This document shows positions 20,068 to 43,564 of a DNA stretch of 64,000 nt, one piece after another (within the stretch, counting starts at the first letter, position 1; each line of letters starts with the position of its first letter). The position numbers and the translations under genes were made by a program. The notes beneath the pieces were generated by a model, which was given only the letters and a program-made list of their open reading frames with translations, searched no databases and had not been told where the DNA came from. The DNA lies in contig CAIUQE010000048.1 of assembly GCA_903901225.1 (NCBI GenBank), forward strand, positions 5,844 to 69,843, given 5' to 3'. This DNA is from Candidatus Omnitrophota bacterium (GTDB lineage: Bacteria; Omnitrophota; Gorgyraeia; Zapsychrales; Fredricksoniimonadaceae).

Positions 20068-20212
20068 TTCTACGATATCCTCTCTGACTGTTAAGCATTA
20101 TATTTTCCCCCTACCCTTGACGCAGCCCTCTTTTATAGTATATATTTATTCTGTCGTCTTTCATTCGTTGACATTTTGGACTATATTTAAAAACCTGAAA
20201 ACAGGAGTTTTT

Positions 20213-23200
20213 ATGGTACGTTCTATTGAAGAATTATCTTGTAAGGCCTTGGTAAGAAAGTCGTTAAGCCTGTTTGTAATGGCCGCTTTCATCTTAACAA
20301 GCCTTGTGCCGCCAACCTATGCCCAGGCCGTATTCAACCTGCCCCAACCGGGTGAGATGATCGGTTTGTCCGGGGTTTATACGCCGGTCGTGCTCAAAGG
20401 CGTCTCCATTCATCCCGAAGACCCCCTTTTATTCGATTTTATCGTTGATAACGGCAATTCTGATCTCAAAGGTCAGGCTTTGACCGATGAGACCACCAAG
20501 CTTGTGAAATATTTCCTGACCGGCCTCGCTGTGCCGGAAAAGGAGCTGTGGGTCAACCTTTCGCCGGTTGAGAACAACCGTATCATGGCCGATGATCTCA
20601 GTCATACGGACGCGGGTCGCGACATGCTGGCGCAGGACTATATCCTCAAGCAGATAACGTCCACTTTGATGTATCCGGAAAAAGACCTTGGCCGCAAGTT
20701 CTGGGATGAGATCTACAGCCGCGTGAACGCGAAATTCGGCACGACCGATATCCCGGTGGACACCTTCAACAAGGTGTGGATCACGCCTGACGTGGCTGAA
20801 GTGTACCAGCACGATGGGAATGCTTTTGTGACCAAGGCGCATTTGAAGGTTATGCTCGAGGCTGATTACAATGCGCTTAACGGTGCCGCGGCCCCCATGG
20901 CTGACGCGGGGAATTCCCAGACCATCGACCTGGCGCGGGATGTGGTGCGTGAGGTGATACTGCCCGTGTTGGAGAAGGAAGTCAACGAGGGCAAGAATTT
21001 CGCGGCCCTGCGGCAGATATTCAATTCCCTGATCCTGGCCGGATGGTACAAGCATGCGTTGAAAGACAGCCTGTTGAACCAGGTTTACGCGGGTACCAAC
21101 AAGGTGGCAGGCATCGATATTGCTGAAAAGAACGCGCGGGAACAGGTTTATGCCCAGTACCTGCAGGCCTACCAGAAGGGTGTTTACAACTATATTAAGG
21201 AAGAGTTCGACAGCACGACAAAGGAGTCCCTGCCGCGTAAGTATTTTTCGGGTGGAGCCGTTCTTGATCGGGCGATGAATCCTGATATAAAAAATAAAAT
21301 TGAACTTGGGTTTGATTTTTTTAGAAAATTAGGGAAAGCACTAACCGTGGTCCCTTTTCAACTTGTTCTTAAGCAGGCACAGAACGCTGTTGAACGTACG
21401 AAAAATAATATTGCCGGAAATAAGACTTCCAAATATTTCGATCTTCCTGAGTTAAGCTCTGACGAGAACAAAGATCTTATCTCGGCTATGAATAGCCCTT
21501 TAGGAATGTCAAGATTTCTGAATTTTGATGGTGTTACATCTGCGTGGGTTATGCCGACAGTGTTGGGTATTTTAGGAATTGTGGCTGAGACAGCGGTTGT
21601 CACATTAGGACAAATACCAATGGATTATAAGTTAGTTGTTAAGAGTGTTCTGCCTTTATACAGTGGTTCGGCTTTGTATACTGCATTATATGCGTATTAT
21701 CGTAGTGCCGCACTTAATGTTGTTCAGGACGATGAAAGAAGTCGTTTGGAAAAACTTCGTGCGGTAATCTTCCTTCGCAAAATTAAAGCTAGGGAGGCTC
21801 TGTGGGATGTTTCCAATAGGGCGAAGTCTGTCGTCACTAAAGTTGCCGGATGGCTTGCCATGGATGATCGAACGCTGCGAGAAATGATCCAGACCGGGGT
21901 ATCCTCTTTTGGAGTACTAAATTATTCACGTATGACCAATCAAGAGAGGGACGCTTTGGCAGGCCAATTGGCCGCAAACAACAATTTTGAAGCCTTGGCG
22001 TTTCTTGCGATTGATCCTCCGACAAGAACCCAAGCGTTGGCATTTTTTCATGGTTGGAGCAATAGTAAAGAAGATGTTCTTGCTATAGGGAAAAATTCTA
22101 TTTTTTCGATAGCTGAGTTCTCGGGTGGGCAAAAAGAACAATTGTTCACAACATTCAGGGCTGTCGTCAACGCTGATTACGCACAGGGAGATACATTGCA
22201 AAAAATGTATTCGAAGAATCTTGACCATGTCCGCAGCGTTCAGATGCTTATCGACAATTTTAAGAAGAAAGACTGGGTACGGATTGAGTTAAATGCTTTG
22301 CGTGATGCGATACGGGATCAGATTGGTTTTGAAGGTTCTTCGGGTAATCTTTCCGGAAATCCTGAACTAACAGCAATGATATTGGAGTTGCAAAAATTAG
22401 TTGATGATAAGGAATTTGAATTATCAACAGGCGTGCAGGAGGATGGCGCGCAGGAGAGCAGGAAACCAGCTAGTCTGGAAGAGGTCAGGTTAGATAAGAT
22501 CTTCTCGAAATACTCTTTAAGTGCCGCTGCTTTTTGGGATGCATATTTCTATTATGTTGAAAAGGTCATTTATCAGGAGACAAAGAACCAGTCATTTGAT
22601 CGCGTTACAAAGTTTAAATCCGTGGGTCTGCGATTGTTAACTCCGATCATTGAAAAAGTAGCCGGTATAGACTCCGGCGTAAGTATTAAAAAGCCGGGAG
22701 AAATACAAAGCTTCTTGGATGAAAAAATCAAGGAATTCAATAAAGACCGGTCACAAACGACGGATTTCGCGGCATCGCCGATCACCCTTTTATTCACGGC
22801 ATTGAGTGCTGCCGAACAACGTGAGGCTGCATTTATTATCGATAACGTAAAACACGGGCTTTTTGGTGATGCGATGGCAGCGGTGGTTTCAAGTGATTCG
22901 AGATTTTCGCCTGCAATTAAACAATTGGCTCTTTGGTTATTAATTCAGCGTTCCTGGAAAGATCCTTATTCTGACCTGGCAACTGACCTTATTAAACAAG
23001 AGATCCGTTATACAATGCCAGAGTTGCGTGCGGTTAACAAAGATGATTTTTCGCCAAAGGATTGGAATGTGATGTTAACCAATAAGTGGATCGATGAGCT
23101 TGGCGTGATCCAGGATGAATTTAAGAAAATCACTGACTATTCAAAGGTGCATTTGGATGGTGTGGAGGACGTAGATGTGCAAAACATTTGTCAGACATTG

Positions 23201-24022
23201 AACGATGAAATTGTCGCGCCAATGTACGATACAGATCTTGTCGTTGCGCATAAAGAGTTGCATTTTAAAAAAGAAGACAGAAAGAAATGGGAAGATGTGG
23301 TCTTTCTTAACGAAACTTCATTGTTCAAACGATATATTGAATTAAGCGGCTCTCAGGAAGAATTTATGGCATTTGTTGATCGTTTTAATGTTAAAAATTT
23401 TAGCAAGAAGCGGTTGGCGCGTTTATTAAATGAGATCAACGCGCAGGTTAATTCCAATCAATATGATGAGGAAAAAAAGATTTTTCTTACAGGATGGAGA
23501 GGGCTGATCGAGCAATTTATTGAGAGTAAGCCCGTGAATGAAGTTTCTGCCCAAGTTAAAATAACAGAACGAGATGATTTTGTGCCTCCATACAGGAGGA
23601 GGATCGATGAGCTCATGCGTGAATCCTTTCCTTCGGGTCAAGATGTTAAGACAGATTCTGGCGAACCTCTTTATAGAAGGCAAATCAATAAACTTATGCA
23701 GAAGAAGAATCTCCCAGGCAGTGATAGTGCCGGGACAGTCGGGACTTCCCAAAAGGATATACAAGGCGGTATCGACCTCGGCCAGGGGGATTATCTCAAG
23801 GTCATTGGCACGGACGCGTCCGGTATGCCGAAGTTCGACCCGGCTCAGCTTATCCAGTTACAGAAGGACCTGCGCGGGATCGTTCCTGTGCCGGTTGGAG
23901 TTCCTCAGCCTGTGAATTTAAAGCCGCTCCTGGGGCTTGACCCCAACAGCGGCAACGAGAACCTCCAGACCGGCCAGCTTGACCCGGTGAAGGTTGAGGC
24001 TGAAGAGGGGGTTCCTTCCTGA
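20213..24022 (+). CDS. giant secreted protein of unknown function (1269 aa), compositionally mosaic
   Basis: Start at ATG 20213 with an aggag RBS. Signal peptide ends AQA. Central nt 21240-23700 is markedly AT-rich relative to both gene ends and to the window. No recognisable catalytic motif. Confidence 0.6.
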   Translation: MVRSIEELSCKALVRKSLSLFVMAAFILTSLVPPTYAQAVFNLPQPGEMIGLSGVYTPVVLKGVSIHPEDPLLFDFIVDNGNSDLKGQALTDETTKLVKYFLTGLAVPEKELWVNLSPVENNRIMADDLSHTDAGRDMLAQDYILKQITSTLMYPEKDLGRKFWDEIYSRVNAKFGTTDIPVDTFNKVWITPDVAEVYQHDGNAFVTKAHLKVMLEADYNALNGAAAPMADAGNSQTIDLARDVVREVILPVLEKEVNEGKNFAALRQIFNSLILAGWYKHALKDSLLNQVYAGTNKVAGIDIAEKNAREQVYAQYLQAYQKGVYNYIKEEFDSTTKESLPRKYFSGGAVLDRAMNPDIKNKIELGFDFFRKLGKALTVVPFQLVLKQAQNAVERTKNNIAGNKTSKYFDLPELSSDENKDLISAMNSPLGMSRFLNFDGVTSAWVMPTVLGILGIVAETAVVTLGQIPMDYKLVVKSVLPLYSGSALYTALYAYYRSAALNVVQDDERSRLEKLRAVIFLRKIKAREALWDVSNRAKSVVTKVAGWLAMDDRTLREMIQTGVSSFGVLNYSRMTNQERDALAGQLAANNNFEALAFLAIDPPTRTQALAFFHGWSNSKEDVLAIGKNSIFSIAEFSGGQKEQLFTTFRAVVNADYAQGDTLQKMYSKNLDHVRSVQMLIDNFKKKDWVRIELNALRDAIRDQIGFEGSSGNLSGNPELTAMILELQKLVDDKEFELSTGVQEDGAQESRKPASLEEVRLDKIFSKYSLSAAAFWDAYFYYVEKVIYQETKNQSFDRVTKFKSVGLRLLTPIIEKVAGIDSGVSIKKPGEIQSFLDEKIKEFNKDRSQTTDFAASPITLLFTALSAAEQREAAFIIDNVKHGLFGDAMAAVVSSDSRFSPAIKQLALWLLIQRSWKDPYSDLATDLIKQEIRYTMPELRAVNKDDFSPKDWNVMLTNKWIDELGVIQDEFKKITDYSKVHLDGVEDVDVQNICQTLNDEIVAPMYDTDLVVAHKELHFKKEDRKKWEDVVFLNETSLFKRYIELSGSQEEFMAFVDRFNVKNFSKKRLARLLNEINAQVNSNQYDEEKKIFLTGWRGLIEQFIESKPVNEVSAQVKITERDDFVPPYRRRIDELMRESFPSGQDVKTDSGEPLYRRQINKLMQKKNLPGSDSAGTVGTSQKDIQGGIDLGQGDYLKVIGTDASGMPKFDPAQLIQLQKDLRGIVPVPVGVPQPVNLKPLLGLDPNSGNENLQTGQLDPVKVEAEEGVPS

Positions 24023-28973: not shown

Positions 28974-31280
28974 CTAATAAATGATGTTCATCAGGAATTT
29001 CAAGAGGGTCATGTGCCTGGCAAGGAGGCGCTTCATTTCGGACGGGGCGGCATCCATGATCCTGACAGGCAAAAACGGGTTCGCTCCTTGCTTTAGAAGA
29101 GTCTTGACAATAACGCTGTTGTTGCGTTTGACGGCCAAAGCGAGCGCCGAGTTCCCCGCTTTGTTCATCGGTGTGACGTCCGCCCGATGGCCCAGTAACA
29201 GAGCGACCACATCCGCGGCGTCCGCGTCGACGGCCAGCATGAGGGGCGTATTGCCATCGTTGCTGGCCACATTGACAAGGGCTCCTGAGCTGACCAGCAA
29301 CAAAGCACACTCAATGCTGCCGGCGTGCGCGGCGAAAGACAAGGCCGTATGGCCTTCGTTGTTGCGGCGCGTTGTATCAGCTTTGCGCCCAAGAAGGAAT
29401 TTAACGGCCTCCTGGTGACCGTTCTCGGCGGCGATCATGAGCGCGGTGCGGCCCGACGCGTCGCTGGTGTTGATATCCATTTTTCGCGCGAGGAAGATAT
29501 CGATGAGATCAACGTCTCCCATCTTGACAGCGGCCAGGAACGGCCCCAATGCGCCGCCAGATGTCATGTCCCAGCTGGCCCCGGCATTTAAAAGCAACTT
29601 GGCAACGGGGCCGTGGCCGTTGGCAATGGCCTCAGCCAGGGCCTTGTCAAAAACGCGCGGGAATTTTTCGTGGCTGCCATATTCCTGGATAAGGCGGTTG
29701 ACCACGGCTTCATGGCCATTACCCGCCGCAAGGATCAAGGGCGAAGTTTTTTCCGGGTTGAGCCCGTCATTCACGCGTGCTCCGGCTTTGAGCAGGCGCG
29801 CGACAATATCCAGGTTGCCACGCCATGCGGCCCGGCTTAGCGGTGTCTGACCTTCTGTATCAGTCGCGTTGACATCAGCCCCCTGGAGGATCAAAAGGTC
29901 GACGATATCCTTTTCCCCTCGCCATACGGCCAGGATGAGGGGCGTTCTTGTCGCCGTGGTTTTTAAAAGAGAAGGATCGACCCCGGTAGACGGCAACATA
30001 ACTTTACCTGTGGCCAGGAGGGCCTCACTGACATCTTTATACCCTTTCAGTAAAGCGATGGATAAGGCATTCTCGTGGTTGCTGGTGGTCCGGGTGACAT
30101 CCGCTCCCTGGTTGATGAGGAACTTGACCATGGGAAGGTCGTCCTGCCAGGCTGCCAGCATCAAAGGTGTCAGGCCTTTAGTATTGGGGAAATCGATCTT
30201 GCTGCCGGCTTTTAGCAGCATTTCGGCTGACGTGAAGTCTTTCTTTTGCACCGCAAGCAGCAGCGCGTTGTCACCGTCATTACTGAGGATGTCGGGGTCA
30301 GCTCCTTTTCGGATGACGTCGGGAAGCCATGCCGTCAGGCCGCGCGCCACGGTTTCCATGAGAGCCGTGCGTCCGTTGCGGTCTTTGTAATTGATGTTCA
30401 GGCCAGCCGCGATGATCCGGTCAAAATCATCTTTGCGCGCGTTCCTGATCGCTGATAAGAAAAGTTCTTCGCGCGGCAGGTCAGGGTCGTTCTGGCCCCA
30501 CCGGGCCTGCTGTTGTATTGTTTTTAGCCTTTCGATCGCCGGACTGAACCCCTTACCCGCGGCTCTTGTGTACCAGGACAAGGCGTCCTGATAGCTTGAA
30601 GCGGTCCCTTTGCCAGTTTCGATGAGCTGTCCCAGCCGGTATTCAGATTCAAGGTCCCCTTGATCAGCAAGGGTTTTATAGAGGTTCACGGCTAGCGCGA
30701 AGTCTTTGTTGTTGACGGCTTGCATGGCCCTGTCATGCAGTTGTTGCTGCGATGAAAGTATGGCCGATGGCTTGAGGGCATTTATGGTTTCAGAGGAAGA
30801 TGTTTCTTTGATCCGAAGAGATGTCGTGCCGTTAATCTTGATATCCGCCAGGCGGTCGACAGCGGGGGTGTAATTCTGGCCGGCTGATTTTTTATACCAG
30901 GATAAGGCTTCGGGAATACCCTGAAGCACTCCCCGGCCGGATTCGAGCATGGAGGCGACATTGAATTGGGCTTTGGCGTTGCCTTTTTCAGCAGCCTTTT
31001 TATACCATGAAAAAGCCGTCGGGTAGTCTTTGGGAACTCCCTTCCCTGTCTCGTAAAGAGCGCCGAGTTGGTATAGCGCGTCGGGATCGCCCTGATCGGC
31101 CAGGCCGGAATATAGCGTAAGCGCAAGTGTGTAATCTCTCGCGCGGATCGCACGCCTGGCTTCATCCATTGGCGATGGCCTGGAGGGAATATCCTGGGCG
31201 CGGGCATCGAGCCCAACGCCCAGGATAAGTAACGGGATAACGGCGGATACACAACGCCGCCATGACCGAGCATGCGACAT
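28974..31280 (-). CDS. secreted Sel1-like-repeat plus ankyrin-repeat protein
   Basis: Signal peptide. Sel1-like repeats (YQLGALYETGKGVPKDY...; EYRLGQLIETGKG). About 13 ankyrin repeats (GRTALM..A...G..DVV..LL..GAD). Start chosen at the ATG at 31280 (MSHARS), which has a ggaga RBS. Confidence 0.7.
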   Translation of the reverse strand: MSHARSWRRCVSAVIPLLILGVGLDARAQDIPSRPSPMDEARRAIRARDYTLALTLYSGLADQGDPDALYQLGALYETGKGVPKDYPTAFSWYKKAAEKGNAKAQFNVASMLESGRGVLQGIPEALSWYKKSAGQNYTPAVDRLADIKINGTTSLRIKETSSSETINALKPSAILSSQQQLHDRAMQAVNNKDFALAVNLYKTLADQGDLESEYRLGQLIETGKGTASSYQDALSWYTRAAGKGFSPAIERLKTIQQQARWGQNDPDLPREELFLSAIRNARKDDFDRIIAAGLNINYKDRNGRTALMETVARGLTAWLPDVIRKGADPDILSNDGDNALLLAVQKKDFTSAEMLLKAGSKIDFPNTKGLTPLMLAAWQDDLPMVKFLINQGADVTRTTSNHENALSIALLKGYKDVSEALLATGKVMLPSTGVDPSLLKTTATRTPLILAVWRGEKDIVDLLILQGADVNATDTEGQTPLSRAAWRGNLDIVARLLKAGARVNDGLNPEKTSPLILAAGNGHEAVVNRLIQEYGSHEKFPRVFDKALAEAIANGHGPVAKLLLNAGASWDMTSGGALGPFLAAVKMGDVDLIDIFLARKMDINTSDASGRTALMIAAENGHQEAVKFLLGRKADTTRRNNEGHTALSFAAHAGSIECALLLVSSGALVNVASNDGNTPLMLAVDADAADVVALLLGHRADVTPMNKAGNSALALAVKRNNSVIVKTLLKQGANPFLPVRIMDAAPSEMKRLLARHMTLLKFLMNIIY

Positions 31281-31314
31281 TCCTGGATCTCCCATAAAAA
31301 GCACAATGCTATTA

Positions 31315-33540
31315 CTAAAAGATCAGCCTGTACCCGGTAGTAATGAACATTTCACGCGATTTGGACTTAATGCCCGACGCGATCTCGCTGACCCACTCTG
31401 TTCCGCCGTCAATTTCCAGTGTCGCGAACTTTGTCAGGCTGTACTCCAGGCGCATTTCGGGACGATAAGCCCAGCGTTCGTCGGCTGACGCTTTCGTGTC
31501 TTTAAAGTCCGTATGAAAACGCGGATTGATCCTGGTTTTGGCCGTCAGCGGGTAACGCGCGTTGAGGTTGAACGCGTAATCATAATATGTTTGCGCGTCG
31601 GTGAACACCAGGCCCGGGATCAAAGAGTCCTGCTCTTTGATAAGGTTGCTGATGTTCAGTTCGGTTGAATAGGTCCAGTCCGGCCCTGTTGAATTGGAGC
31701 CTTCAACCCCGCCGGACGTGATCATACCTTCGAGCGCGGAGACCGAGACTTCACCCGTCCACTGGAGATTTTCCCTGATGTCCTGGCTCACACCGGCCGT
31801 GGCCGACTTGCTGTTCGTCGAGCGGTCAATGGCCAGTTGGCGCAGCTCTTTTCTGGTATAAGTGGACTTAAGGTCGGATATATTCGCGACACCCATCCCC
31901 TGGATCGCGTTGTTCGTTGTGATCAAAGGCGACTTGCGGTAGTCTGCCGTCAAGCTGAGCGTGGTCTTTGTCGGCAAGGTGTAACGCATGTTGGTGGACG
32001 CGATATTGAGCCTCTGGAAATATGTATCATAATCGACAAGTGTGAAGAGCGATTTTTTCCGGTCAAAATACCTGACCTCGCCGCCCACCGCCTGGCGGTC
32101 CGTCAAGCCTGAATTCTGCTGGGCAATGGCAAAGGTATTGAATGTCCAGCGCGCTTTGGGGATCCCCCAGTCGATGTTGATCCCTTCGAACAGTTTCTGC
32201 GTGATCACCCGTGATATTTTCACGCTATCAACCGGATAACCGCTGACAACGTTGAGCTTTATCCCTGGGGTTATCTGCTTGGACACATGGACACCGTCAA
32301 AACGACCCAATACGCCGCCCGTTGAGAGTGTCTGGCGTCCGGCGCGCGCGTAGAAACCGAGTTTTTTGGACTTGATATCAACGGCCATGGCGCTCAAGCG
32401 ATTCTCATTCTTGCTGCCGCTGAGGTAATTCTGTGTTTTTCCACCGCTGAAACGCGCCTTGATCTCGAGGTCCCGGCTCTTCCACCGCCCGTTGATATCA
32501 ACGTCGCTGGCAAGGTTGTTCAACGTGTCGTTTTGTTTGCTTCCTTTGATCTTTAACATGTCCCTGTAATAGTACTGGGACGCGCTGCCGAAATACTGCG
32601 ATGACCACACGGACTCGGCGATCTTTCTGCTGGCGCCGGCAGGTTCCTTGAGAGGGGCCTGGGCGGCCTGGGTGGAGGTAACAACACCCGCCAGGCGTTG
32701 ACGGACACGGTCGGCGTCGGGGCCTTCGGGATATTCTTTAAGGTACTGGCTGTATTCAGCGGCCGCGTGGGCCAGTTGCTTGTTGCGTTCCCGCGCGACA
32801 CCCAACAATTCCCGCGCCTGTTTTTTCAATTCTCCTTGAGCTGTCAGAAGGACTTTCAAATATAGCTGGACCGCGGCGTCATAATCAGGCTTCACCAGCG
32901 CATCTTTGGCTTCCCGCATGAGCGAAGATTCAGGCTGGTCTAGAGGGGCTTCAGGCAATGCCAATTCCCCTGCTTTCCTGGCTTCGAGCCCGGCCCCCTG
33001 CGGCGGCTGGGCTGTAGTTACCCTGATGGTCACGGTTTTCATATCCGCGCTGTCATGCACATCGATCGTAACATCTTCGTTAAAATCGAGGATGATCTGC
33101 GGGTTTTCCGTGTCATTGCCATCGAAAGTGATATTGTTCAACGGGATGCCTGAGGAGTGATCCCAGGAAGGGATCAGGTTCGAATGGATGATGTCGAGAT
33201 CCTCCTGGTCCAGTTTTGAATGGTCGACGGTCTTTAACTGGATGTAGAACTTGCTCGCTTTCCCGGAGGGTGACGCATTCTTGAAGCGGTAGGAATAGAG
33301 CGAGTTCATCTCGATCTTGTAACCTTCGGAAATTGTCTGGATCTTGATATCTTCCATGGCGCCGGCATAAGCAGGTACGACGGAAAGTAACCAAATGCTT
33401 AGGAAGACTGTTAATGATCTGACGCCGTTGGCCAGTGTTTCTTGAAGAAAAGTTTTATTCACGAACGTTGAGCCGGATATATTTTTTATAGTGAGCACGA
33501 TAGTCTTTCTTACTTGTTGAATGTTCTTGTTGAGTGACAC
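31315..33540 (-). CDS. outer-membrane protein: N-terminal TPR-like helical region plus C-terminal beta-barrel
   Basis: Signal-peptide-like segment. Helical repeat region. Alternating amphipathic C-terminal half ending in the aromatic residue ...YRLIF. The listed start overlaps the upstream cytochrome by 31 nt; an alternative GTG at 33462 would avoid the overlap. Confidence 0.5.
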   Translation of the reverse strand: MSLNKNIQQVRKTIVLTIKNISGSTFVNKTFLQETLANGVRSLTVFLSIWLLSVVPAYAGAMEDIKIQTISEGYKIEMNSLYSYRFKNASPSGKASKFYIQLKTVDHSKLDQEDLDIIHSNLIPSWDHSSGIPLNNITFDGNDTENPQIILDFNEDVTIDVHDSADMKTVTIRVTTAQPPQGAGLEARKAGELALPEAPLDQPESSLMREAKDALVKPDYDAAVQLYLKVLLTAQGELKKQARELLGVARERNKQLAHAAAEYSQYLKEYPEGPDADRVRQRLAGVVTSTQAAQAPLKEPAGASRKIAESVWSSQYFGSASQYYYRDMLKIKGSKQNDTLNNLASDVDINGRWKSRDLEIKARFSGGKTQNYLSGSKNENRLSAMAVDIKSKKLGFYARAGRQTLSTGGVLGRFDGVHVSKQITPGIKLNVVSGYPVDSVKISRVITQKLFEGINIDWGIPKARWTFNTFAIAQQNSGLTDRQAVGGEVRYFDRKKSLFTLVDYDTYFQRLNIASTNMRYTLPTKTTLSLTADYRKSPLITTNNAIQGMGVANISDLKSTYTRKELRQLAIDRSTNSKSATAGVSQDIRENLQWTGEVSVSALEGMITSGGVEGSNSTGPDWTYSTELNISNLIKEQDSLIPGLVFTDAQTYYDYAFNLNARYPLTAKTRINPRFHTDFKDTKASADERWAYRPEMRLEYSLTKFATLEIDGGTEWVSEIASGIKSKSREMFITTGYRLIF

Positions 33541-36500
33541 GCGCCACAGTCTTGTGTGGTACGCGGATGATCATGCGACTTTCCAGTGATCTGGATGCCG
33601 TCATGCGATTGTCCATCATGGCAGCTGGAACAAGTTCCGGATGCATCTGAATGGTTGAATTTGCTGCTTGAAACATTCCAACTTGAGGTCAAATGGCAAT
33701 TGCCGCAATTATTGGTGGTATTTAAATGGGAAGCTCCTTTTCCTGTAGCTTTTGATCCGTTATGGCACGAGGAACATGTTCCCGTGACCGCTGTATGATC
33801 AACGCGTGCTACCGGTGTCCAGGCCACGGTCGAGTGGCAACTGTTGCAGGTGCTCGCGGAACTGATGTGGTTAGCCGATTTGCCTGTAGCGGATGATCCG
33901 TTGTGGCAGGTGGAACATGCCGCAGAAACGCCGCCATGGTCAAAAACCGCGGGGGTCCAGGCATTGGTGTTGTGGCAGGCGTCACAGCTCGTCGATGTCG
34001 GGATGTGCGTGGCGTTCTTACCCGGAGCCGTCGAGCCGTTATGGCAACTGGAGCATGACCCTGTCACCGAGGTGTGGTCTACCCTTGAGACAGAGCTCCA
34101 GGAAACGGTCGTATGGCAGTTATTGCAAATATTGTTCGTCGTGATATGGGTCGGAGGCTTACCGCTCGCGCTTGTGCCATTATGGCAATTCGCGCATGAA
34201 CCGCTCACCGCGTTGTGGTCCATCCGCGTCACGGGGGTCCAGGCCGAGGTCGAATGACAGCTGTCGCAGGTCGTTGCCGAAGCAATATGGTTTGGCGATT
34301 TCCCGGTGGCCGTGGTGCCATTATGGCAGCTTGAACAAGAGCCGCTGACCCGCGAGTGATCCAGGCGTGACACGGCCCAGCTCGATGTTGTGTGGCAGGA
34401 GTCACAGGACGCTGATGTTGCGATATGGTTCCCCGGCTTCCCTGTCGCCGTTGAGCCATTGTGACAGTTCGCGCAGGTGCCGGTCGCCGCGGCATGGTCC
34501 ATGCGGGTGACGGGCGACCAGGCTGAGGTTGAATGGCAACTGTCGCAGGTTGTTGCGGAGGCGATATGATTGGCCGGCTTCCCCGAGGCGGTCGTGCCGT
34601 TATGGCAGCTGGAACATGTGCCGCTGACCTTGGAGTGGTCCAGACGTGACACGGTCCAGCTCGACGTTGTATGGCAGGCGTCACAGGCCGCGGATGTGGT
34701 GATGTGATTTGCAGGTTTTCCTGTCGCCGCCGACCCGTTGTGGCAGTTGGCACATGTGCCGGTCACCGCGGCATGGTCCATGCGGGTGACGGGCGTCCAG
34801 GCTGTGGTCGAATGACAGCTGTCGCAGGTCGTCGCGGAGGCGATGTGGTTCGCCGATTTTCCCGGTGCCGTTGTGCCGTTATGGCAGCTGGAACACGTCC
34901 CGCTGAGCTTGGAATGGTCCAGCCGGGACACGGTCCACGATGATGTCGTATGGCAGGCGTCACAGGCGGCGCTTGTGGCAATGTGCGTGCCCGGCTTGCC
35001 TGTGGCGGCTGATCCATTATGGCACGCGGCGCACGCTCCTGTCACCGCCGCGTGATCAAGCCTCATCACGGGTGACCACGCCGTTGTCGAATGGCAACTG
35101 TTACATGTTGCCGCGGAACTTATGTGCGTGGGAGATTTTCCGGTCGCGGTCGTTCCGTTGTGGCAGCTTGAACAACTGCCGCTTACCTTGCTGTGGTCCA
35201 GCGATGTCACGGCCCAGTTGTTGGTGCCATGGCAGGCGTCACAGCTGGCGCTCGTGGCGATATGTGTGGGCGATCTTCCCGTAGCGGCAGACCCGTTGTG
35301 GCAGCTCGCGCAGGTTCCTGTCGCCGCCGTATGGTCCATCCTTGCCAGCGGGGTCCAGGCTGATGTGGTGTGACAACTGTTGCAGGTTGTTGCGGCAGCG
35401 ATGTGCGTTGGCGATTTTCCTGTCGCTGTAGTACCGTTATGACAACTCGCGCAGGTCCCGCTGGCCTTGGTGTGGTCAAATGAAGATACCGCCCAACTGT
35501 TGATGCTGTGGCATGAATCACAGCTGGCGCTTGTGGCAATGTGGGTGGCGGTCTTGCCCGGCGCCGTTGATCCGTTGTGGCATGATGCGCATGTTCCGCT
35601 AACGGACGCATGGTCCATTTTTGTCAAGGGGGTCCAGGCCGAGGTTGAATGGCAACTGTTACAGGTCGTCGCGGAACTGATATGCGTCGCGGACTTGCCC
35701 GTCGCGGACGTCCCGTTATGGCAGCTCGCGCAGGTCCCGGTGACCTTGTTATGGTCAAGTGAGGCCGCTGCCCAAGTGGTTGTGCTGTGACAGGAATCAC
35801 ACGTGGCACTGGTGGCGACATGTTTGGCAGGCTTGCCTGTGGAGATGGTCCCGTTATGGCAGCTTGCGCAGGTCCCGGTCACGGCCGCGTGGTCCATTTT
35901 TGTCAACGGCGTCCAGGCTGATGTGGCGTGGCAACTGTTACAGGTCGTCGCGGTGCTGATATGTGTGGCTGACTTACCTGCCGCGGACGTCCCGTTATGG
36001 CAACTGGCGCACGCGCCGCCGCCGGTCTTGTTGTGGTCAAATGATGATACAGCCCAGCTGTTGACGCTGTGGCAGGCATCGCAGCCGGTTGATGTGGCAA
36101 TATGCCGGGCCGGCTTCCCTGTCGCGGCGCGCCCGTTATGGCAATTCGCGCACGTGCCGATACCGGCCGCATGATCCATCTTGGTCAGGGGTGTCCAGCC
36201 GGTTGTCGTATGGCAACTGTTGCAGGTTGCCGTCGAACTTATGTGTGACGGAGATTTTCCCTGCGCGGTCGTCCCGTTGTGGCAACTGGCGCATGTCCCG
36301 GATGCTCTTTTGTGGTCGAAAGAAGCCACGGCCCAGCTGTTGGTGGTGTGACACGTGTCGCAGGCATCGTTGGTCAGGATGTGACGGGACGGTTTTCCTG
36401 TCGCGGTCGTCGTATTGTGGCAACTGGCACATGTCCCTGATGCCCTGGAGTGATCGAACTTTTTGACGGCCCAGCTGTTGGTGGTATGGCACACTTCACA

Positions 36501-37058
36501 GCCATCGGTCGTGACAATATGGCTTATCGGCCGGCCCGTGGCATTCTGGCCGTTATGGCAGCGGGCACAAACGCCGATGACCTTACTGTGATCAAATTTA
36601 ACCTTGGTCCAGCTGGAAGTGACATGGCAGGTGTCACAGTTGGCAACTGTCGGGACGTGCCCGATGTCCTTCCCGCCCGCTGTTGTCCCGTTGTGGCAGT
36701 TGAGGCATGAGCCGATCACCGCGTTATGGTCAACCGAAACATTGCTGCTGAAATTTGTTGATGAATGGCAATCCTGGCAGCGTTCGCTGCTCCTGATGTG
36801 GTTGACAGGCTTTGACATGGCCTGGATGCCCGCGCCTGAAGTGTGGCAGCCGTCACAGGTGTTGGGCGTGTTCTTGAAGCGGCCTTGCGCGTGGCACGTC
36901 TCACATGTCAGCCCGGCATGGGCCCCGGTGATGGCAAAGCCCGTCGTGTTGTGGTCGAACGTTCCGGTATCAGCCTGTGCTCCTGCAGGAAGCAGCGCCA
37001 GGACGAAAGCCAGCGCCCATGTCATGAAAGCCAAAAGGTTTATTCGTTTATCGCTCAT
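33510..37058 (-). CDS. secreted giant multiheme c-type cytochrome (49 CxxCH motifs in 1182 aa)
   Basis: Signal peptide ends AQA. I counted 49 CxxCH motifs. Most of the protein is built from tandem ~47-aa diheme repeats. ATGA overlap with the upstream 27-heme gene. Confidence 0.85.
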   Translation of the reverse strand: MSDKRINLLAFMTWALAFVLALLPAGAQADTGTFDHNTTGFAITGAHAGLTCETCHAQGRFKNTPNTCDGCHTSGAGIQAMSKPVNHIRSSERCQDCHSSTNFSSNVSVDHNAVIGSCLNCHNGTTAGGKDIGHVPTVANCDTCHVTSSWTKVKFDHSKVIGVCARCHNGQNATGRPISHIVTTDGCEVCHTTNSWAVKKFDHSRASGTCASCHNTTTATGKPSRHILTNDACDTCHTTNSWAVASFDHKRASGTCASCHNGTTAQGKSPSHISSTATCNSCHTTTGWTPLTKMDHAAGIGTCANCHNGRAATGKPARHIATSTGCDACHSVNSWAVSSFDHNKTGGGACASCHNGTSAAGKSATHISTATTCNSCHATSAWTPLTKMDHAAVTGTCASCHNGTISTGKPAKHVATSATCDSCHSTTTWAAASLDHNKVTGTCASCHNGTSATGKSATHISSATTCNSCHSTSAWTPLTKMDHASVSGTCASCHNGSTAPGKTATHIATSASCDSCHSINSWAVSSFDHTKASGTCASCHNGTTATGKSPTHIAAATTCNSCHTTSAWTPLARMDHTAATGTCASCHNGSAATGRSPTHIATSASCDACHGTNNWAVTSLDHSKVSGSCSSCHNGTTATGKSPTHISSAATCNSCHSTTAWSPVMRLDHAAVTGACAACHNGSAATGKPGTHIATSAACDACHTTSSWTVSRLDHSKLSGTCSSCHNGTTAPGKSANHIASATTCDSCHSTTAWTPVTRMDHAAVTGTCANCHNGSAATGKPANHITTSAACDACHTTSSWTVSRLDHSKVSGTCSSCHNGTTASGKPANHIASATTCDSCHSTSAWSPVTRMDHAAATGTCANCHNGSTATGKPGNHIATSASCDSCHTTSSWAVSRLDHSRVSGSCSSCHNGTTATGKSPNHIASATTCDSCHSTSAWTPVTRMDHNAVSGSCANCHNGTSASGKPPTHITTNNICNNCHTTVSWSSVSRVDHTSVTGSCSSCHNGSTAPGKNATHIPTSTSCDACHNTNAWTPAVFDHGGVSAACSTCHNGSSATGKSANHISSASTCNSCHSTVAWTPVARVDHTAVTGTCSSCHNGSKATGKGASHLNTTNNCGNCHLTSSWNVSSSKFNHSDASGTCSSCHDGQSHDGIQITGKSHDHPRTTQDCGACHSTRTFNK
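33940..36450 (-). repeat. in-frame tandem array of ~141-bp coding repeats (about 17-18 units, several nearly identical)
   Basis: Repeating protein unit CASCHNGTxATGKxxxHIATSAxCDxCHxTxxWTPVTRMDHAAVTGT. Adjacent double units (~280 bp) are almost identical at the DNA level. Confidence 0.8.
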
Positions 37059-39025
37059 TTACTATCCCTGATGAAATATTTCTTGAACGTATCAACGGCA
37101 TGACACAGGCCGCAATTCTCGCCGAATTGTCCTTTATGGACGTCATCGTTCTCATGGCACGCGAAACAATCCGATGAAGTATGCCGGCCTTTTGCGAGGG
37201 GTTTGTTATGGCACGCTGCGCATTTGATCCCCGCGTGCGGCCCCTCAAGTTTGTATTTGGTCTGTCGGTCATGGTCGAATTGCCACAACTTCCAGCCGTT
37301 GGGATTGTGGCATTGGCCGCAATCCGTCCCCAAAGCGCTTTTATGCGTATCTTGCCTGGCGTGACATGAACCACAATCAGGCTGGGTGTCTTGATAAGCG
37401 GCCGAATGATGACATTCTGTGCATGCCAGGACAGCATGCTGGCCAATGAGCGGAAAATGAGTCAGGTCATGGTCGAATTTTGACACATCCTGCCATTTCC
37501 CGGCATTATGGCAACGCTGACAATCGCGCGCGGACGCGCTTTTGTGGACATCATCTTTTTGATGACAACTGGCGCAATCTGTCGGCAGCCTCGTCCCGTG
37601 TTCCAGCGGGGCGTTATGGCAAGCGCGGCATTTTAACGTTTCGTGTGCTTCAGTCAACAAAAATTTTGTCATAATATTGTGCTTAAAATCCCACTGTTTC
37701 CAGCTGTCAGCCGTATGGCATTGCGCGCAATCTTCACCGAGGGCACCTTTATGCGTGTCGTCTTTTTCATGGCAGGAAGAACACGCGCGTTTAGCGTCTT
37801 TGAACGCCGCGCTAAGATGGCATGTGTTACAAGCCAGAACAATATGCGGGCCTTTTAACTGGAAACGAGTCCTGTCGTGGTCAAATTTAACGTTAACTTT
37901 CCAGCCCGCATCGTTGTGGCAGGACTGGCAGTCCTTCCCTTCCTGCCCTTTGTGCACATCCTGCGCCTGATGGCAGGACAGGCAAGCCTTGTCGATTTTC
38001 ATATCAGCCGAAGCTATCCTGTGACAGGCCTCACAATCGGCAGCCCTATGTTTCCCTGACAACAAGAAATGCGTGTCGCGGTCATGGTCAAAGGTGACCT
38101 TTTTCCATCCGGATGTGGTGTGGCACTGTTCGCATTTGGTCCCGTTCTTGGCTTTATGGGTGTCGTCCAGTTTATGGCACGCCAGACAATTTGTCGGAGT
38201 GGTTGTCGTAAAAACATTCGCGGCATGGCAGGCCGCGCATGCCGTCTGGAGGTGCTTTCCCGTCAAGGCGAACTTGGTCCCTTTGTCATGGTCAAAAGAG
38301 ATGTTCTTCCATCCACGGGTTGAATGGCACTGTTCACAACGGGCATCACGGGGGCTGTTATGGACATCATTGATCAGATGGCACGCCACGCAAGCCACGG
38401 CTGTTTTGGTGTATTTTTCATTAACATGGCAGATATTGCAGGCGACGTTCACATGCTTCCCGTTCAGTGGGAAATTTGTTTTGGCATGAACAAAGAGCGC
38501 GTTTTTCCAGCCGGTGTCATTGTGGCATCGGGCGCAATCTTTACCAAGTTCTTCATGATGATGATCATTCTTGGCGTGACAGCTGTAACAATCTTCGGGA
38601 GCAGCCCGGTAAGGGCGTCCGGGTTGATGGCATGAGCGGCATGTCACGCTCGAAAGAGCGTGGGCCCCATGGAGCGCGAAGTCTGTCCGGTCATGCTTGA
38701 AGGTTTCTTTATCCAGACGGACAATGTCATACGCGCGGCCTTTATGTTCCGTGTGGCAGGCCTTGCAAGCCTTATCTTCCTCGCCCGCGCGCCGGCCGTG
38801 GAGGCCTTGATGGAGCGTGATGTCAGAGGCCACATCCTTGTGGCAGTCCAGGCATATCAGATCCTGTTTGTTCTTGTCGAAAGCAGAATGGCATTTTGGA
38901 CACTGCCCTTCGTAGGCCGCGTGGGCCCTGGTCAATGGCCCGGGCATGACGAACAGTTCGATGAGATTAACGCGATAAAGTTGGAACAGCGCTATCAGTA
39001 TGAGCACGACCAGAGCGCTGATCAC
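37055..39025 (-). CDS. membrane-anchored multiheme cytochrome, c7/c3-polymer-like (27 CxxCH motifs)
   Basis: N-terminal TM anchor. 27 CxxCH motifs, roughly three per ~70 aa, resembling triheme c7-like modules. GTG start per ORF track. Confidence 0.8.
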   Translation of the reverse strand: MISALVVLILIALFQLYRVNLIELFVMPGPLTRAHAAYEGQCPKCHSAFDKNKQDLICLDCHKDVASDITLHQGLHGRRAGEEDKACKACHTEHKGRAYDIVRLDKETFKHDRTDFALHGAHALSSVTCRSCHQPGRPYRAAPEDCYSCHAKNDHHHEELGKDCARCHNDTGWKNALFVHAKTNFPLNGKHVNVACNICHVNEKYTKTAVACVACHLINDVHNSPRDARCEQCHSTRGWKNISFDHDKGTKFALTGKHLQTACAACHAANVFTTTTPTNCLACHKLDDTHKAKNGTKCEQCHTTSGWKKVTFDHDRDTHFLLSGKHRAADCEACHRIASADMKIDKACLSCHQAQDVHKGQEGKDCQSCHNDAGWKVNVKFDHDRTRFQLKGPHIVLACNTCHLSAAFKDAKRACSSCHEKDDTHKGALGEDCAQCHTADSWKQWDFKHNIMTKFLLTEAHETLKCRACHNAPLEHGTRLPTDCASCHQKDDVHKSASARDCQRCHNAGKWQDVSKFDHDLTHFPLIGQHAVLACTECHHSAAYQDTQPDCGSCHARQDTHKSALGTDCGQCHNPNGWKLWQFDHDRQTKYKLEGPHAGIKCAACHNKPLAKGRHTSSDCFACHENDDVHKGQFGENCGLCHAVDTFKKYFIRDSK

Positions 39026-39175
39026 CAGGTTAAAACTTTTTTTCTTTCCTGCGGATTCGATAATAACTCCTTTTCGAAAAAAATATCTGTGTAAAAGATA
39101 CTATATATAATTAACAAAGCAAATTTATTTTATGAAATTTTGGGATCAAAACAACGAAGAGGAGCTACTGTCTGG

Positions 39176-39589
39176 TCAGGGTTTAGAATGATCGGCCGGG
39201 CCGGTGTTGTGAAGGATATAACCAAGATTTTGTCCGGTCCTGGAATAATCCAGGGCGGTCATTTTTTTGATGCTTTGGATCACATTGTTGTCGCGCGTGT
39301 AGTCGATCCTCACCCTGTCCCCCGTTTGATAACCGGGTGAGTTGTCCAGGTAAATGAAACTCCTGACGGTACGCGTGTTCTCATCATAAATATCAATGCG
39401 GTTGCGACCCATGGCCCTGATCGTGCCAAAGATCATGTCGGTACTTTTGAGTTGTTGGAAGGTTTGGTCTGTTGTTGCTGCCTGGCCGGGGAAAACAAGA
39501 GCAGCTGAAAACAAGAGGACGCAAAAAACCCCGGACCTTGCATGTTTTGGCAGAACAGCGTCAAGAAGAACGTGTGCTGTAAGTTCCAT
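39176..39589 (-). CDS. small secreted hypothetical protein (137 aa)
   Basis: Signal-peptide-like N-terminus. No recognisable motif. Confidence 0.4.
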   Translation of the reverse strand: MELTAHVLLDAVLPKHARSGVFCVLLFSAALVFPGQAATTDQTFQQLKSTDMIFGTIRAMGRNRIDIYDENTRTVRSFIYLDNSPGYQTGDRVRIDYTRDNNVIQSIKKMTALDYSRTGQNLGYILHNTGPADHSKP

Positions 39590-39612: not shown

Positions 39613-40308
39613 CTATTTGCCGTACACTGTCTGTAATTGCGCGACTTTGGGGAACTCCGCGTAGAATTCACCCTGGGGACCCACGAAGCCGGCCCCTGAC
39701 CTCTTGATCGTTACCGCCGTATACCCGCCACTTTTGGTGTTGGGGATATTGATCGTGAACACCTCATCGGCCGCGGGAGTTGCCGCTGATGCCGTTACAG
39801 ATGCCGCTGGGGCTGTTGCAACCGGCTGGGGCTGTGTTATCGATGCCTGAACGATGACAGGGGCCGGCGCGGGTTGTGTGACAATGACCGGTGCCTGTGT
39901 CATTGTCGCAGGTTGCTGAACGACCTGGTATCCATAACGCGTGTAAATGTAATAAGTGCCGTTATCGACGTAGTACGTGATACCGTTGATCACAATGGGC
40001 CGGTATTCCGGAGGGATCGCGGCCACCACGGCGCCGATCGGCGGGGTTACAAGGACAAAGTCACCGCCTATTTTGGTGTAATAAAGCCCATCATAATAGT
40101 AATATCTCGCTTCCCTTGTCCGCACAACAAAGGCGTCGTCGGGAACAAAGGTCAAATGAAGGCCAAACGAAGGGCGCTCGTGATAGCGATAATAATGATG
40201 GTCTTCGTGACGACCATTGTCCCTGGCGAATGACAACGAAGGCGGTGCCAATAATGACAATCCCATAATTAGCGCCGACACCTTCGATATTTCTTTTATA
40301 CTGAACAT
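39613..40308 (-). CDS. secreted Tyr-rich protein, paralog A
   Basis: Signal peptide. Y-rich core (ARYYYYDGLYYTKIGGDFVLV...INGITYYVDNGTYYIY). Pro/Ala/Thr/Val-rich linker. Conserved C-terminus GPQGEFYAEFPKVAQLQTVYGK shared with 40885..41490. Confidence 0.55.
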   Translation of the reverse strand: MFSIKEISKVSALIMGLSLLAPPSLSFARDNGRHEDHHYYRYHERPSFGLHLTFVPDDAFVVRTREARYYYYDGLYYTKIGGDFVLVTPPIGAVVAAIPPEYRPIVINGITYYVDNGTYYIYTRYGYQVVQQPATMTQAPVIVTQPAPAPVIVQASITQPQPVATAPAASVTASAATPAADEVFTINIPNTKSGGYTAVTIKRSGAGFVGPQGEFYAEFPKVAQLQTVYGK

Positions 40309-40346
40309 GGCGAACCTCTTGTTTTGAGCTGGCAGGTCCAGTCCTG

Positions 40347-40808
40347 TTACCTGGTCTGCATGGTTTCAATGACCCGCTGACTTACACCTTCCCTGCGCAG
40401 ATAACTTATGTCATCAGCCGTGAGGGCATACGTTGAATTAGTGGTCCTGATTCTGGCAATGATCTCATCCCCCGACAAGCCCTGCTGTGTCCAATCAACG
40501 ATCTGCTGCATCGTTATTTGGGAGATCGGAGTGGCGCGTGACGCGACCGGGACCTGTCTGGGCGTAGCGTTCTTGTTCTCGATCTGTGACCCCGCAATGC
40601 CACCCGCGGCCGCGCCCAAAGCACCGCCGATCAAAGCGCCGCCGATGGCATGGTCGCCTTTTTGCTGATGCCCCACTACGCCGCCGACAACAGCGCCGAG
40701 TATGCCGCCGATCCCGGCGCCCTCAGCGACCTTGGTCTGGTTCTCGGCGCAGCCGGACAATGCCAGCGCGTAGACCGCAATGATTAGTAGATAGACTTGA
40801 TTCTTCAT
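40347..40808 (-). CDS. glycine-zipper lipoprotein
   Basis: Lipobox LALSGCA. Glycine zipper GIGGILGAVVGGVVG...GALIGGALGAAAGGIAG. Small globular C-terminal domain. Confidence 0.55.
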   Translation of the reverse strand: MKNQVYLLIIAVYALALSGCAENQTKVAEGAGIGGILGAVVGGVVGHQQKGDHAIGGALIGGALGAAAGGIAGSQIENKNATPRQVPVASRATPISQITMQQIVDWTQQGLSGDEIIARIRTTNSTYALTADDISYLRREGVSQRVIETMQTR

Positions 40809-40884
40809 TCCCTGCCTCCATGTTTGATGATTTAATTATCAAAGGCCGCCATGTGACCTGATGGGCCGCATTTTAGCACTTTTT

Positions 40885-41490
40885 TCATTTTGTATACATA
40901 ACACGTAATTGCTCGACCTTGGGAAATTCATTATAAAATTCTCCCTGGGGTCCGATAAACCCGCTGCCTGACCGCGTGAGATTTACAGCCGTGAACCCGC
41001 CCTGGGAATTTGGCACATTGACGGTAATGGCTCCCTGGGCGCTGGCAGGAGCAGTTGCCGGGGTGATCACTGTAGGCGGCGCGACAACAACAGCGGGCTG
41101 ATAAATGACCGGTTGAGGAACGACCTGATAACCGCCCGCGACGGGAACATAATAAGTCCCGTTATACTCAAAATATGCGGTGCCGTTGACAATGTACTGC
41201 CGGGATCCGGCGGGAATAGCGTAAACGATCGCGTTAACAGGGGCCGTTTCAACGATATAGGTGTAAGAAACGGGTGTGTAATAACGGGGCGGATAATACC
41301 TGTGGGCATAATAGTCCCTCCAGGGGTCATAATCCCTGAAAGAGCCCCTTCCACGATGGTCCGCGACGCCGATATCTATCCCCCATGAAACACCGGCATG
41401 GGCTGTTGTTGGCGTGAAGGACAAGATTAGGAAGGCCAGGATGCTCACACACAAGGACACGGGAAAATTCAATTTGTTCGAGCTATACAT
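40885..41490 (-). CDS. secreted Tyr-rich protein, paralog B
   Basis: Start at ATG 41490 (MYSSNK) with a ggagg RBS. Signal peptide. Same architecture and C-terminal GPQGEFYNEFPKVEQLRVMYTK motif as paralog A. Confidence 0.55.
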   Translation of the reverse strand: MYSSNKLNFPVSLCVSILAFLILSFTPTTAHAGVSWGIDIGVADHRGRGSFRDYDPWRDYYAHRYYPPRYYTPVSYTYIVETAPVNAIVYAIPAGSRQYIVNGTAYFEYNGTYYVPVAGGYQVVPQPVIYQPAVVVAPPTVITPATAPASAQGAITVNVPNSQGGFTAVNLTRSGSGFIGPQGEFYNEFPKVEQLRVMYTK

Positions 41491-41568
41491 AGGTACCTCC
41501 ACAGGATCGTTTGCGTTCCTGTTAATTAGACAACAACACACCTAAAAAAGTTCCCATAAAATAGATCA

Positions 41569-42544: not shown

Positions 42545-43564
42545 TCACGCGACATCCCGGGCATGCGCGCGGGTGAAATCAATGACCTGGCGCATCATGG
42601 TGACCGTTTCGACAGGATATTTCCCTGCCGCGGTTTCGGCGGATAGCATCAGAAAATCCGAGCCATCGAGCATCGCGTTGGCGACATCCGTCACCTCAGC
42701 GCGCGTGGGCCTGTAGTGCTCGGTCATGCTTTCCAGCATCTGGGTCGCGGTGATCACGAGCTTCTTCGCGCGATTGCATTTATGGATGATCTTCTTCTGG
42801 ATCACGGCTATCTCGTAGATGGGCAACGACACGCCCATGTCGCCGCGGGCGACCATGATCCCGTCGCTGACCGCGAGGATCTCGTCAATATTCCTGATCC
42901 CCTCCCTGTTCTCGATCTTGGCAATGATCTTGCAGGCAGGGCTCCTGTCTTTGACAGATTCTTTGAAATTAAGGATATCCTCCTTGCGCCGGACAAAGGA
43001 CTGCGCGATATAATCCGCCTTGTTCCTGACGCAGAACTCGATATTTTCCTTGTCCCTGCCGGTCAAGCCGTCAAAACCCAGATCTACATCGGGTATATTG
43101 ATCCCCTTATGCTCCTTCAGGACACCGGGAACGAGAACTTCCGTCTTAAGGATGTTGCGGTTACCCGAAAGGACTCTTAGCGCGATATTGCCGTCGTCAA
43201 TATAAATGAGCGACCCCTTGCCGATAGCCGTCAGGTCGCCTTGATAGTCAAAAGGGACCGCGTTCTCGATGCAAGGCGCCGCGGCATTGCTCAGAACGAG
43301 CGACTGGTTTTTCCTTAAGAGGATATCCTGATCAAGTTTTCCTATCCTGATCCTGTAGCCCTCGAGATCCCCCAGGAACCGCAATCGCCTAGAGTATTGC
43401 TTATTTAGGGCGCGGATACGCTCGATGACCTTCGCGTGACCGGCAAGATTGCCATGAGAGAAGTTCAGGCGGGCAACATCCATCCCGGCCAGCAACATTC
43501 GTTTCAAGACCGAAAGAGTGTTACTCATCGGCCCGATCGTGCAAATAATGCCTGTTTTACCCAT
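42545..43564 (-). CDS. pyruvate-kinase-like protein lacking the C-terminal regulatory domain (339 aa)
   Basis: PK barrel motifs [18 protein letters not shown] and MVARGDMGV. The protein ends at the end of the A domain. Confidence 0.6.

Follow-up and report, generated by a model that had tools for sequence, protein, structure and literature searches.

Genes at the locus

The DNA analysed here, referred to as the window, is a stretch of 64,000 nucleotides (nt) from a Candidatus Omnitrophota bacterium (GenBank assembly GCA_903901225.1, contig CAIUQE010000048.1, positions 5,844 to 69,843). On its minus strand it carries a five-gene operon, in the order A-B-C-D-E, headed by an open reading frame (ORF) for a 27-heme cytochrome, ORF A, and considered here as a candidate porin-cytochrome conduit. 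All positions are in the numbering of the window, forward strand. The HtpG protein encoded in the window is 69-81% identical to HtpG of Candidatus Omnitrophota / Omnitrophica, by which the host is assigned to this phylum. The operon consists of the following genes, with lengths in amino acids (aa):

37055-39025, minus strand: ORF A, 27-heme cytochrome of 656 aa, read from a GTG codon; stop codon at 37055-37057
33510-37058, minus strand: ORF B, 1182-aa cytochrome with 49 CxxCH motifs and a cleavable signal peptide, rich in Thr, Ser, Ala and Gly; its ATG overlaps the stop codon of ORF A (ATGA)
31315-33498, minus strand: ORF C, 727-aa outer-membrane protein with a signal peptide and a predicted 22-strand barrel, ending in ...YRLIF
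28974-31304, minus strand: ORF D, Sel1 and ankyrin repeat protein with an N-terminal signal-like segment
28062-28964, minus strand: ORF E, 300-aa inner-membrane protein, putatively carrying di-heme b, with WX3HX13H at aa 93 and 275 and SGXXG at aa 134

The stop-start overlap between ORFs A and B (37055-37058) recurs in three relatives, as ATGA or as a single shared nucleotide (L005, 11584; L007, 11584-11587; L009, 8594-8597). Because the overlap is found here and in these three, translational coupling of the two cytochromes is suggested to be conserved.

Heme motifs and modules of ORF A

ORF A was described in a preliminary description of the locus as having 27 CxxCH motifs in roughly nine triheme modules. 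Both counts were borne out, with one divergent module followed by eight regular ones:

38708-38947, minus strand: divergent triheme module 1 (aa 27-106), opening with a family-wide MPG motif
37058-38707, minus strand: eight regular triheme modules (aa 107-656) of the pattern FDH..L.G.H-CxxCH-x12-14-CxxCH-xxDDxH-x7-CxxCH..W
37490-37897, minus strand: modules 6 and 7 (aa 377-512), missing from the closest 21-heme Omnitrophota relatives

The 27 motifs account for all 54 Cys of the protein, their chance expectation for a protein of this size being far below 1, and a motif count over the whole protein returned no CX3-4CH variants. The motifs are spaced by 16, 29 and 42 residues, and then by a repeating 16-18, 18 and 32-33, giving a density of 24.3 aa per heme. 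Each regular module spans 67-70 aa, with the ligand order H, H, CxxCH, CxxCH, H, CxxCH and motif spacings of 17/18/33. Pairwise protein identity among the modules is 29-59%, and TRF found no DNA tandem repeat within ORF A; the modules are too diverged for detection as DNA tandem repeats, and the duplications are therefore old.

In an alignment of 83 homologues, every CxxCH and three extra His per module were found invariant or nearly so, the extra His of module 2, for example, being H111, H122 and H156. These conserved non-motif His amount to 27 candidate distal ligands for 27 hemes, while Met occurs at just three positions (aa 27, 342 and 452). Since there are 27 conserved distal His and only three Met, all hemes of ORF A are predicted to be bis-His ligated.

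A probable porin-cytochrome operon of the PCC3 type

PCC3 was defined by bioinformatics as a gene cluster for a porin and an inner-membrane protein together with two cytochromes, one extracellular and one periplasmic (He et al. 2017, PMC5566968). In that description the inner-membrane protein has about 300 aa and five transmembrane helices, of which helix 4 bears SGXXG and helices 3 and 5 bear WX3HX13H, and the cytochromes use 22-39 aa per heme, the outer one being repetitive and rich in Thr, Ser, Ala and Gly (PMC5566968). The periplasmic subunit carries 21, 24 or 27 motifs and was modelled as long and linear (Hoover et al. 2023, PMC9900912).

Counterparts of all four components are present in the operon. 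ORF A agrees with the periplasmic subunit in heme count and in residues per heme. It adjoins ORF B, a larger cytochrome whose motifs lie 23-24 residues apart (about 24 aa per heme), whose composition is T 15.5%, S 14.6%, A 12.7% and G 7.9%, and which contains a tandem repeat of 279 nt (93 aa, four hemes) in about seven copies of 71-75% identity; an extracellular site is predicted for it. ORF B scored 48.6 bits against the nanowire_3heme model TIGR04257. The barrel is supplied by ORF C, for which AlphaFold2, using 62 homologues, produced a model with a predicted local distance difference test score of 85.6 and a predicted template modelling score (pTM) of 0.70. In the model 22 long strands lie within aa 299-726 and a helical insertion occupies aa 528-558; as N-terminal extras there are a small beta domain (aa 48-161) and a helical domain resembling tetratricopeptide repeats (TPR; aa 191-277). 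Foldseek matched it to FimD, MOMP, porins, FadL and AlgE with E-values down to 3e-10, and its C-terminal residue is Phe. ORF E has the size of the inner-membrane component and its signature motifs: those at aa 93 and aa 275 read WFQLH..x13..H and WHVLH..x13..H, and the one at aa 134 reads SGVVG. Four of its segments exceed the hydropathy threshold; a fifth, aa 93-111, is the one that bears the His. In several sources the homologues of ORF C are named 'tetratricopeptide repeat protein' or 'tol-pal YbgF', not porin.

The arrangement is shared by many bacteria. Species-representative genomes of GTDB, a set outside which the genome of the window itself lies, were scanned with nine close sequences, and 80 loci were obtained. 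Their hosts are Omnitrophota, Planctomycetales, Nitrospinaceae, Verrucomicrobiota, Myxococcota and many Gamma- and Alphaproteobacteria, the former including Sedimenticolaceae, Thiodiazotropha symbionts, Steroidobacteraceae and Methylococcaceae, and the latter Bradyrhizobium and Hyphomicrobiaceae. A homologue of ORF E is present in 78 of the 80 loci, usually directly upstream of the cytochrome; ORF D has a homologue in 67 and ORF C, within the flanks, in 53. In most of the loci a second cytochrome with 11-95 hemes lies directly downstream. Homologous syntenic loci occur in groups that were also listed by He et al., namely Bradyrhizobium, Methylococcaceae, sulfur-oxidising symbionts and Betaproteobacteria. 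The closest operon belongs to the Omnitrophota metagenome-assembled genome (MAG) ELA581, which has the same A-B-C-D-E order and an ORF B of 1361 aa.

In its main text, the paper defining PCC3 uses none of the words ankyrin, Sel1 and tetratricopeptide. The conserved ankyrin/Sel1 gene represented by ORF D stands beside the system unmentioned there, and its product, predicted to be secreted, might be a fifth part of the system that has so far gone unrecognised, such as a scaffold or an assembly factor.

Taken together, the gene set and its synteny make it quite probable that ORF A encodes the multiheme cytochrome on the periplasmic side of a porin-cytochrome conduit of the PCC3 type in Omnitrophota. 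The preliminary description had likened the protein to the polymerised-c7 proteins of metal reducers; the PCC3 operon is the more informative context than a free polymer of the Geobacter type.

Relation to c7 polymers and other cytochrome families

The likeness to polymerised c7 proteins that had been claimed for ORF A held at a remote level only. ORF A matched the Pfam family Cytochrome_C7 (PF14522) with 103.2 bits over five stretches, above the gathering cutoff of 24.8 bits of this broad family ('c7 and related'), and it also matched Cytochrom_c3_2. The more specific models failed: no match was obtained to TIGR04257 nanowire_3heme at E <= 0.01, nor to NF043011 CytC7_Geobact. Against the PDB, the whole of ORF A gave just a marginal match to a nine-heme cytochrome. 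A module profile of 68 positions (A4), built from 50 modules and searched against PDB chains, had its best match in GSU1996 (3OV0, E = 5.2e-9), and its AB fragment 3OUQ was matched at 2.7e-7; the individual domains of 3OV0 gave weak E-values, from 0.07 to above 1. Further matches were to 16-heme HmcA, nine-heme cytochromes and c3 proteins, and PpcA was not among the best 60 (E up to 0.22).

The c7/c3 spacing that had been proposed for the modules did not stand. The motifs of PpcA are spaced by 24 and 14. The spacing in ORF A is the 17/18/33 given above, and the domain register of the Pfam and GSU1996 matches is shifted by one heme, such that a c7-type domain combines the final heme of one module with the first two of the next. 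Since the specific models fail, the hemes are predicted to be bis-His, and GSU1996 is just the best remote match, ORF A is a distant all-bis-His cousin of the c7 polymers, as far as sequence comparison places it, and lies outside the Geobacter family.

These results bear on a different reading, in which ORF A would be a free soluble nanowire of the Geobacter type, like the 12-heme GSU1996 and the 27-heme GSU2210, serving as a periplasmic electron store or capacitor. Its tandem triheme modules, a heme count equal to that of GSU2210 (PMC10138318), the Pfam match and the fact that, among solved structures, GSU1996 is matched best by the module profile (E = 5e-9) speak for such a function. The failure of TIGR04257 and NF043011 and the weak individual-domain values against 3OV0 speak against it, as does ligation: each GSU1996 domain has one His-Met heme (PMC10138318), whereas ORF A has its three Met and 27 distal His. 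Furthermore, ORF A has no AxA cleavage site, and it is tightly linked to a barrel, to a membrane protein (78 of the 80 loci) and to a second giant cytochrome. A soluble polymer is therefore improbable.

Another reading would make ORF A a subunit of some other respiratory system, either an HmcA-like high-molecular-weight cytochrome of a sulfate-respiration complex or a decaheme insert of the MtrA/DmsE type. HmcA and nine-heme cytochromes do appear among the profile matches, and NCBIfam scores of 50.5 bits for HmcA (NF045713) and 25.3 bits for the DmsE decaheme (TIGR03508) were recorded, but the curated cutoffs, 400 and 192.2 bits, are much higher, and the operon contains no Hmc or Mtr partner genes. 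This possibility is very slight indeed.

Relatives and module number

More than 6000 proteins are homologous to ORF A. Heme counts among the 83 aligned homologues were mostly 24 (43 proteins), 27 (22) or 21 (15), with 23 in two and 30 in one. The closest relatives are 21-heme proteins of Omnitrophota MAGs, 53-62% identical, and these differ from ORF A by exactly two modules, the missing modules 6 and 7. Length in this family of periplasmic wires varies by steps of exactly one triheme module.

The N-terminal helix

38966-39025, minus strand: N-terminal hydrophobic helix (aa 1 to about 20), ISALVVLILIALFQLY, from hydropathy and AlphaFold2

A single N-terminal transmembrane helix had been claimed for ORF A, and both methods agree with it: hydropathy shows one transmembrane-like segment, at aa 1-19, and AlphaFold2 places a helix at aa 2-25. 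The segment has no AxA cleavage site, and in this clade the basic residues come after it. For these two reasons the helix is probably retained as an uncleaved signal anchor. More distant 27-heme homologues in the alignment, including proteins of Betaproteobacteria and Nitrospira MAGs, have cleavable signal peptides of the AxA type.

The start of ORF A

39023-39025, minus strand: GTG, the sole canonical start that keeps the N-terminal helix, without a Shine-Dalgarno (SD) sequence
39038-39046, minus strand: in-frame AAG AAA AAA (Lys-Lys-Lys), 5-7 codons upstream of the GTG
39059-39064, minus strand: candidate non-canonical in-frame starts ATT (39062-39064) and ATC (39059-39061), 13 and 12 codons upstream of the GTG
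39067-39073, minus strand: AAAGGAG, a strong SD-like heptamer 5 nt before the ATC, which is 36 nt upstream of the GTG, and 2 nt before the ATT

The GTG is the first ATG, GTG or TTG past the in-frame stop, and with initiation at the next canonical starts, a GTG at codon 7 and an ATG at codon 27, the export helix would be truncated or lost. Pairing of the 20 nt 5' of the GTG with the anti-SD amounts to just -0.4 kcal/mol, as compared with -7 to -13 kcal/mol for the SD-bearing genes of the window, which have AAGGAGG- or GGAGG-type sites. The source organism thus uses SD sequences, yet many of its genes have none. A GTG start without a convincing SD, as first described, was accordingly confirmed. 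The accompanying proposals fared differently: nothing was found in support of a leaderless transcript, and translational coupling to the upstream gene was excluded, because the preceding ORF on the same strand ends 150 nt upstream of the GTG. Between the genes upstream of ORF A no sigma-70 consensus promoter was seen, and the region had no Rfam family match. In predicted folding the leader does not surpass shuffled sequence (z = +0.9), and these scans detected no riboswitch or structured regulator.

The start region and the 185 nt upstream of it are base-for-base identical in an independent metagenome assembly (L010), so that an assembly error is not the cause. Four more metagenome contigs, 99.99-100% identical to the operon, begin 61 nt inside ORF A and do not cover the start. 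Metagenomes were also scanned with N at the ATC, AAG and GTG positions, in search of alleles that differ in the start region, and gave no matches.

Comparison was made with the N-termini of the closest relatives (8 in alignment A2, 12 in A6). These begin ahead of the position that corresponds to the GTG, by 5-7 residues or, in a single relative, by 16, and all have Lys or Arg within the first few residues, as in MKLSTV, MKFSFF, MRF and MNK. Nine of the relatives have an ATG followed by Lys or Arg at the site where ORF A has no canonical start, and the product initiated at the GTG, (M)ISALVV, has no basic residue at its N-terminus. For 25 codons 5' of the GTG the frame stays open; it reads ...IIESAGKKKSFNL and then VISALVV, and this upstream frame looks like coding sequence. 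The initiator Met of the relatives aligns within the Lys-Lys-Lys cluster; with the AAG read as a former ATG, MKKSFNLVISALVV aligns with MKFSFFSAIGVIVI of a relative (P0101). An ancestral ATG was probably lost at the homologous position, which is now part of the Lys cluster.

GUG can initiate translation, and so can AUC behind a strong SD. ORF A may start at the SD-less GUG, in an A/U-rich, unstructured leader, or at the upstream AUC or AUU behind AAAGGAG, by which a Lys-rich cytoplasmic N-region would be restored; the two sites are rated about equally likely. No ATG, GTG or TTG lies in any frame between the AAAGGAG and the GTG. A frameshift in the A7 run that precedes the GTG was ruled out, as no frame offers a start codon in this interval and the other two frames hit stops. 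The preliminary description had held that an upstream start revealed by transcript data would overturn it, and to this it is partly exposed: the ATG of the relatives and the SD-fronted ATC, both read from sequence, lie upstream of the GTG.

A gene with such a start might be translationally crippled or a very recent pseudogene, yielding little or no full-length exported protein and affecting the coupled ORF B as well. The loss of a canonical start where nine relatives keep ATG with Lys or Arg would fit this, as would an SD-less GTG and an N-terminus without a basic residue, when every complete N-terminus inspected in the closest clade, the one with the signal anchor, has such a residue, and the fact that gene callers skipped the ORF in three public assemblies of the same sequence. 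On the other hand, the 656-codon frame is intact with 27 of 27 CxxCH and 27 of 27 distal His retained, the same allele occurs in several independent samples, the relatives' SD sequences are weak too, and both GUG and an AUC behind a strong SD are capable of initiation. The probability of a crippled gene is judged to be low.

Annotation of ORF A in public assemblies

Three public assemblies of the same DNA (L001, L002 and L004, which correspond to the window from 38964 downward) have gene calls that omit ORF A. In its place either three ORFs on the opposite strand (141, 103 and 79 aa) or an out-of-frame ORF of 129 aa were called. Because the start codon is ambiguous and automatic gene callers put opposite-strand ORFs in place of ORF A, genes of this sort may be undercounted when multiheme cytochromes are surveyed.

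The only near-identical protein in the databases, P0001 (520 aa), has a divergent C-terminus. A real variant was ruled out here, since the 1.8-kb contig L010 ends in unrelated sequence inside the repeated modules (L010 1-20 and 1733-1787), which marks an assembly break.

A model for the conduit

As the periplasmic cytochrome of a PCC3-type conduit, ORF A would be exported by Sec and would receive its hemes in the periplasm, where it would be tethered at the inner membrane beside ORF E, the putative di-heme-b protein linked to quinone. GSU1996 measures about 12 nm for 12 hemes. Scaled from this, the 27 hemes of ORF A would form a linear chain roughly 25 nm long, a length similar to the width of a periplasm. 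The chain would then reach the barrel of ORF C and pass electrons to or from the 49-heme ORF B on the outside. The number of triheme modules (18, 21, 24, 27 or 30 hemes in relatives) would set the length of the wire.

A bolder version of this model may be put forward, although it is rather unlikely to be right in full. Omnitrophota have very small cells and are often host-associated. Their wire might be permanently anchored instead of acting as a soluble shuttle, and with ORF B it might form one hard-wired path of 76 hemes from the di-heme-b protein to the exterior, serving minerals or partner cells, with expression throttled through the AUC/AUU or SD-less GUG start.

Several points weigh against the PCC3 reading and its details. 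The role of PCC3 in extracellular electron transfer is itself a bioinformatic hypothesis, and ORF A was assigned through synteny and the published definition of PCC3, the type organisms of which are Sideroxydans lithotrophicus ES-1 and Leptothrix cholodnii SP-6. The AlphaFold2 model of ORF A, built without hemes, has a pTM of only 0.40, so that geometry and length of the wire are inferred, and Foldseek found 0 matches for it in the PDB, a result that is uninformative for a heme-packed fold of low secondary structure. Non-cleavage of the N-terminal helix was judged solely by the missing AxA site. As for the upstream start, AAGGAG occurs 32 times in the window, which is about the chance number, and since the relatives generally have weak SD sequences, the AAAGGAG could be coincidental.

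PCC3 is among the most heme-rich electron conduits predicted and is widespread, and the present locus extends its host range to Omnitrophota, with related loci in Planctomycetales, Nitrospinaceae, Verrucomicrobiota and Myxococcota. ORF A and its closest relatives also point to a clade whose PCC3 wire is probably anchored in the membrane. In all, this is probably a conduit of a known kind, to which modest new points are added: the host in Omnitrophota, the probable anchored variant and the lost canonical start.

Other observations in the window

Upstream of the operon, at 39613-41541 (minus strand), two DUF6515 paralogues of 231 and 218 aa flank a glycine-zipper lipoprotein-like gene, and a 137-aa secreted protein without family assignment is encoded at 39176-39589. 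An ORF of 1337 aa at 20009-24022 (plus strand) has no Pfam match at E <= 1e-5; public gene calls begin it 68 codons downstream, at an ATG after CAGGAG. Two pyruvate kinase genes lie within 20 kb of each other, at 42545-43564 (minus strand) and 60130-61911 (minus strand), one for a barrel-only form of 339 aa and one for a form of 593 aa with a C-terminal phosphoenolpyruvate-utilising mobile domain.

Comparison with known systems

The periplasmic cytochrome of PCC3 (He et al. 2017; MMseqs cluster 20 of Gallionellaceae in Hoover et al. 2023) is the nearest known counterpart of ORF A and is likewise predicted to be long and linear. In iron oxidisers PCC3 was found expressed above the mean. The present system differs in its host, which is an Omnitrophota bacterium, as against mostly Proteobacteria in the original survey, and in an anchor-like N-terminus in place of the cleavable AxA-type signal peptides of more distant 27-heme homologues. 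Its membrane-protein gene stands last in the A-B-C-D-E order, whereas in most other loci it directly precedes the cytochrome, and ORF A lacks the usual ATG start codon of its relatives.

With the Geobacter c7 polymers GSU1996 and GSU2210, of a group to which GSU0592 also belongs, ORF A shares tandem triheme domains in one polypeptide, and GSU2210, its 27-heme counterpart in G. sulfurreducens, has the same heme count (PMC10138318). The modules of ORF A are smaller, about 68 aa as compared with about 80 aa in GSU1996, and are predicted to be bis-His throughout, where each GSU1996 domain has its His-Met heme. Furthermore, ORF A is linked in an operon to a barrel and a predicted extracellular cytochrome, while the Geobacter polymers are free-standing.

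MtrCAB and MtoAB have the same architecture as is inferred here: the periplasmic cytochrome sits in a barrel, where it meets its extracellular counterpart. By sequence ORF A is not a member of these families (25 bits against the 192-bit cutoff of the DmsE model), and the present system would carry 27 + 49 hemes where MtrCAB and MtoAB have 10 + 10. Its barrel, ORF C, also differs from theirs, with 22 predicted strands and with additional N-terminal beta and TPR-like domains.

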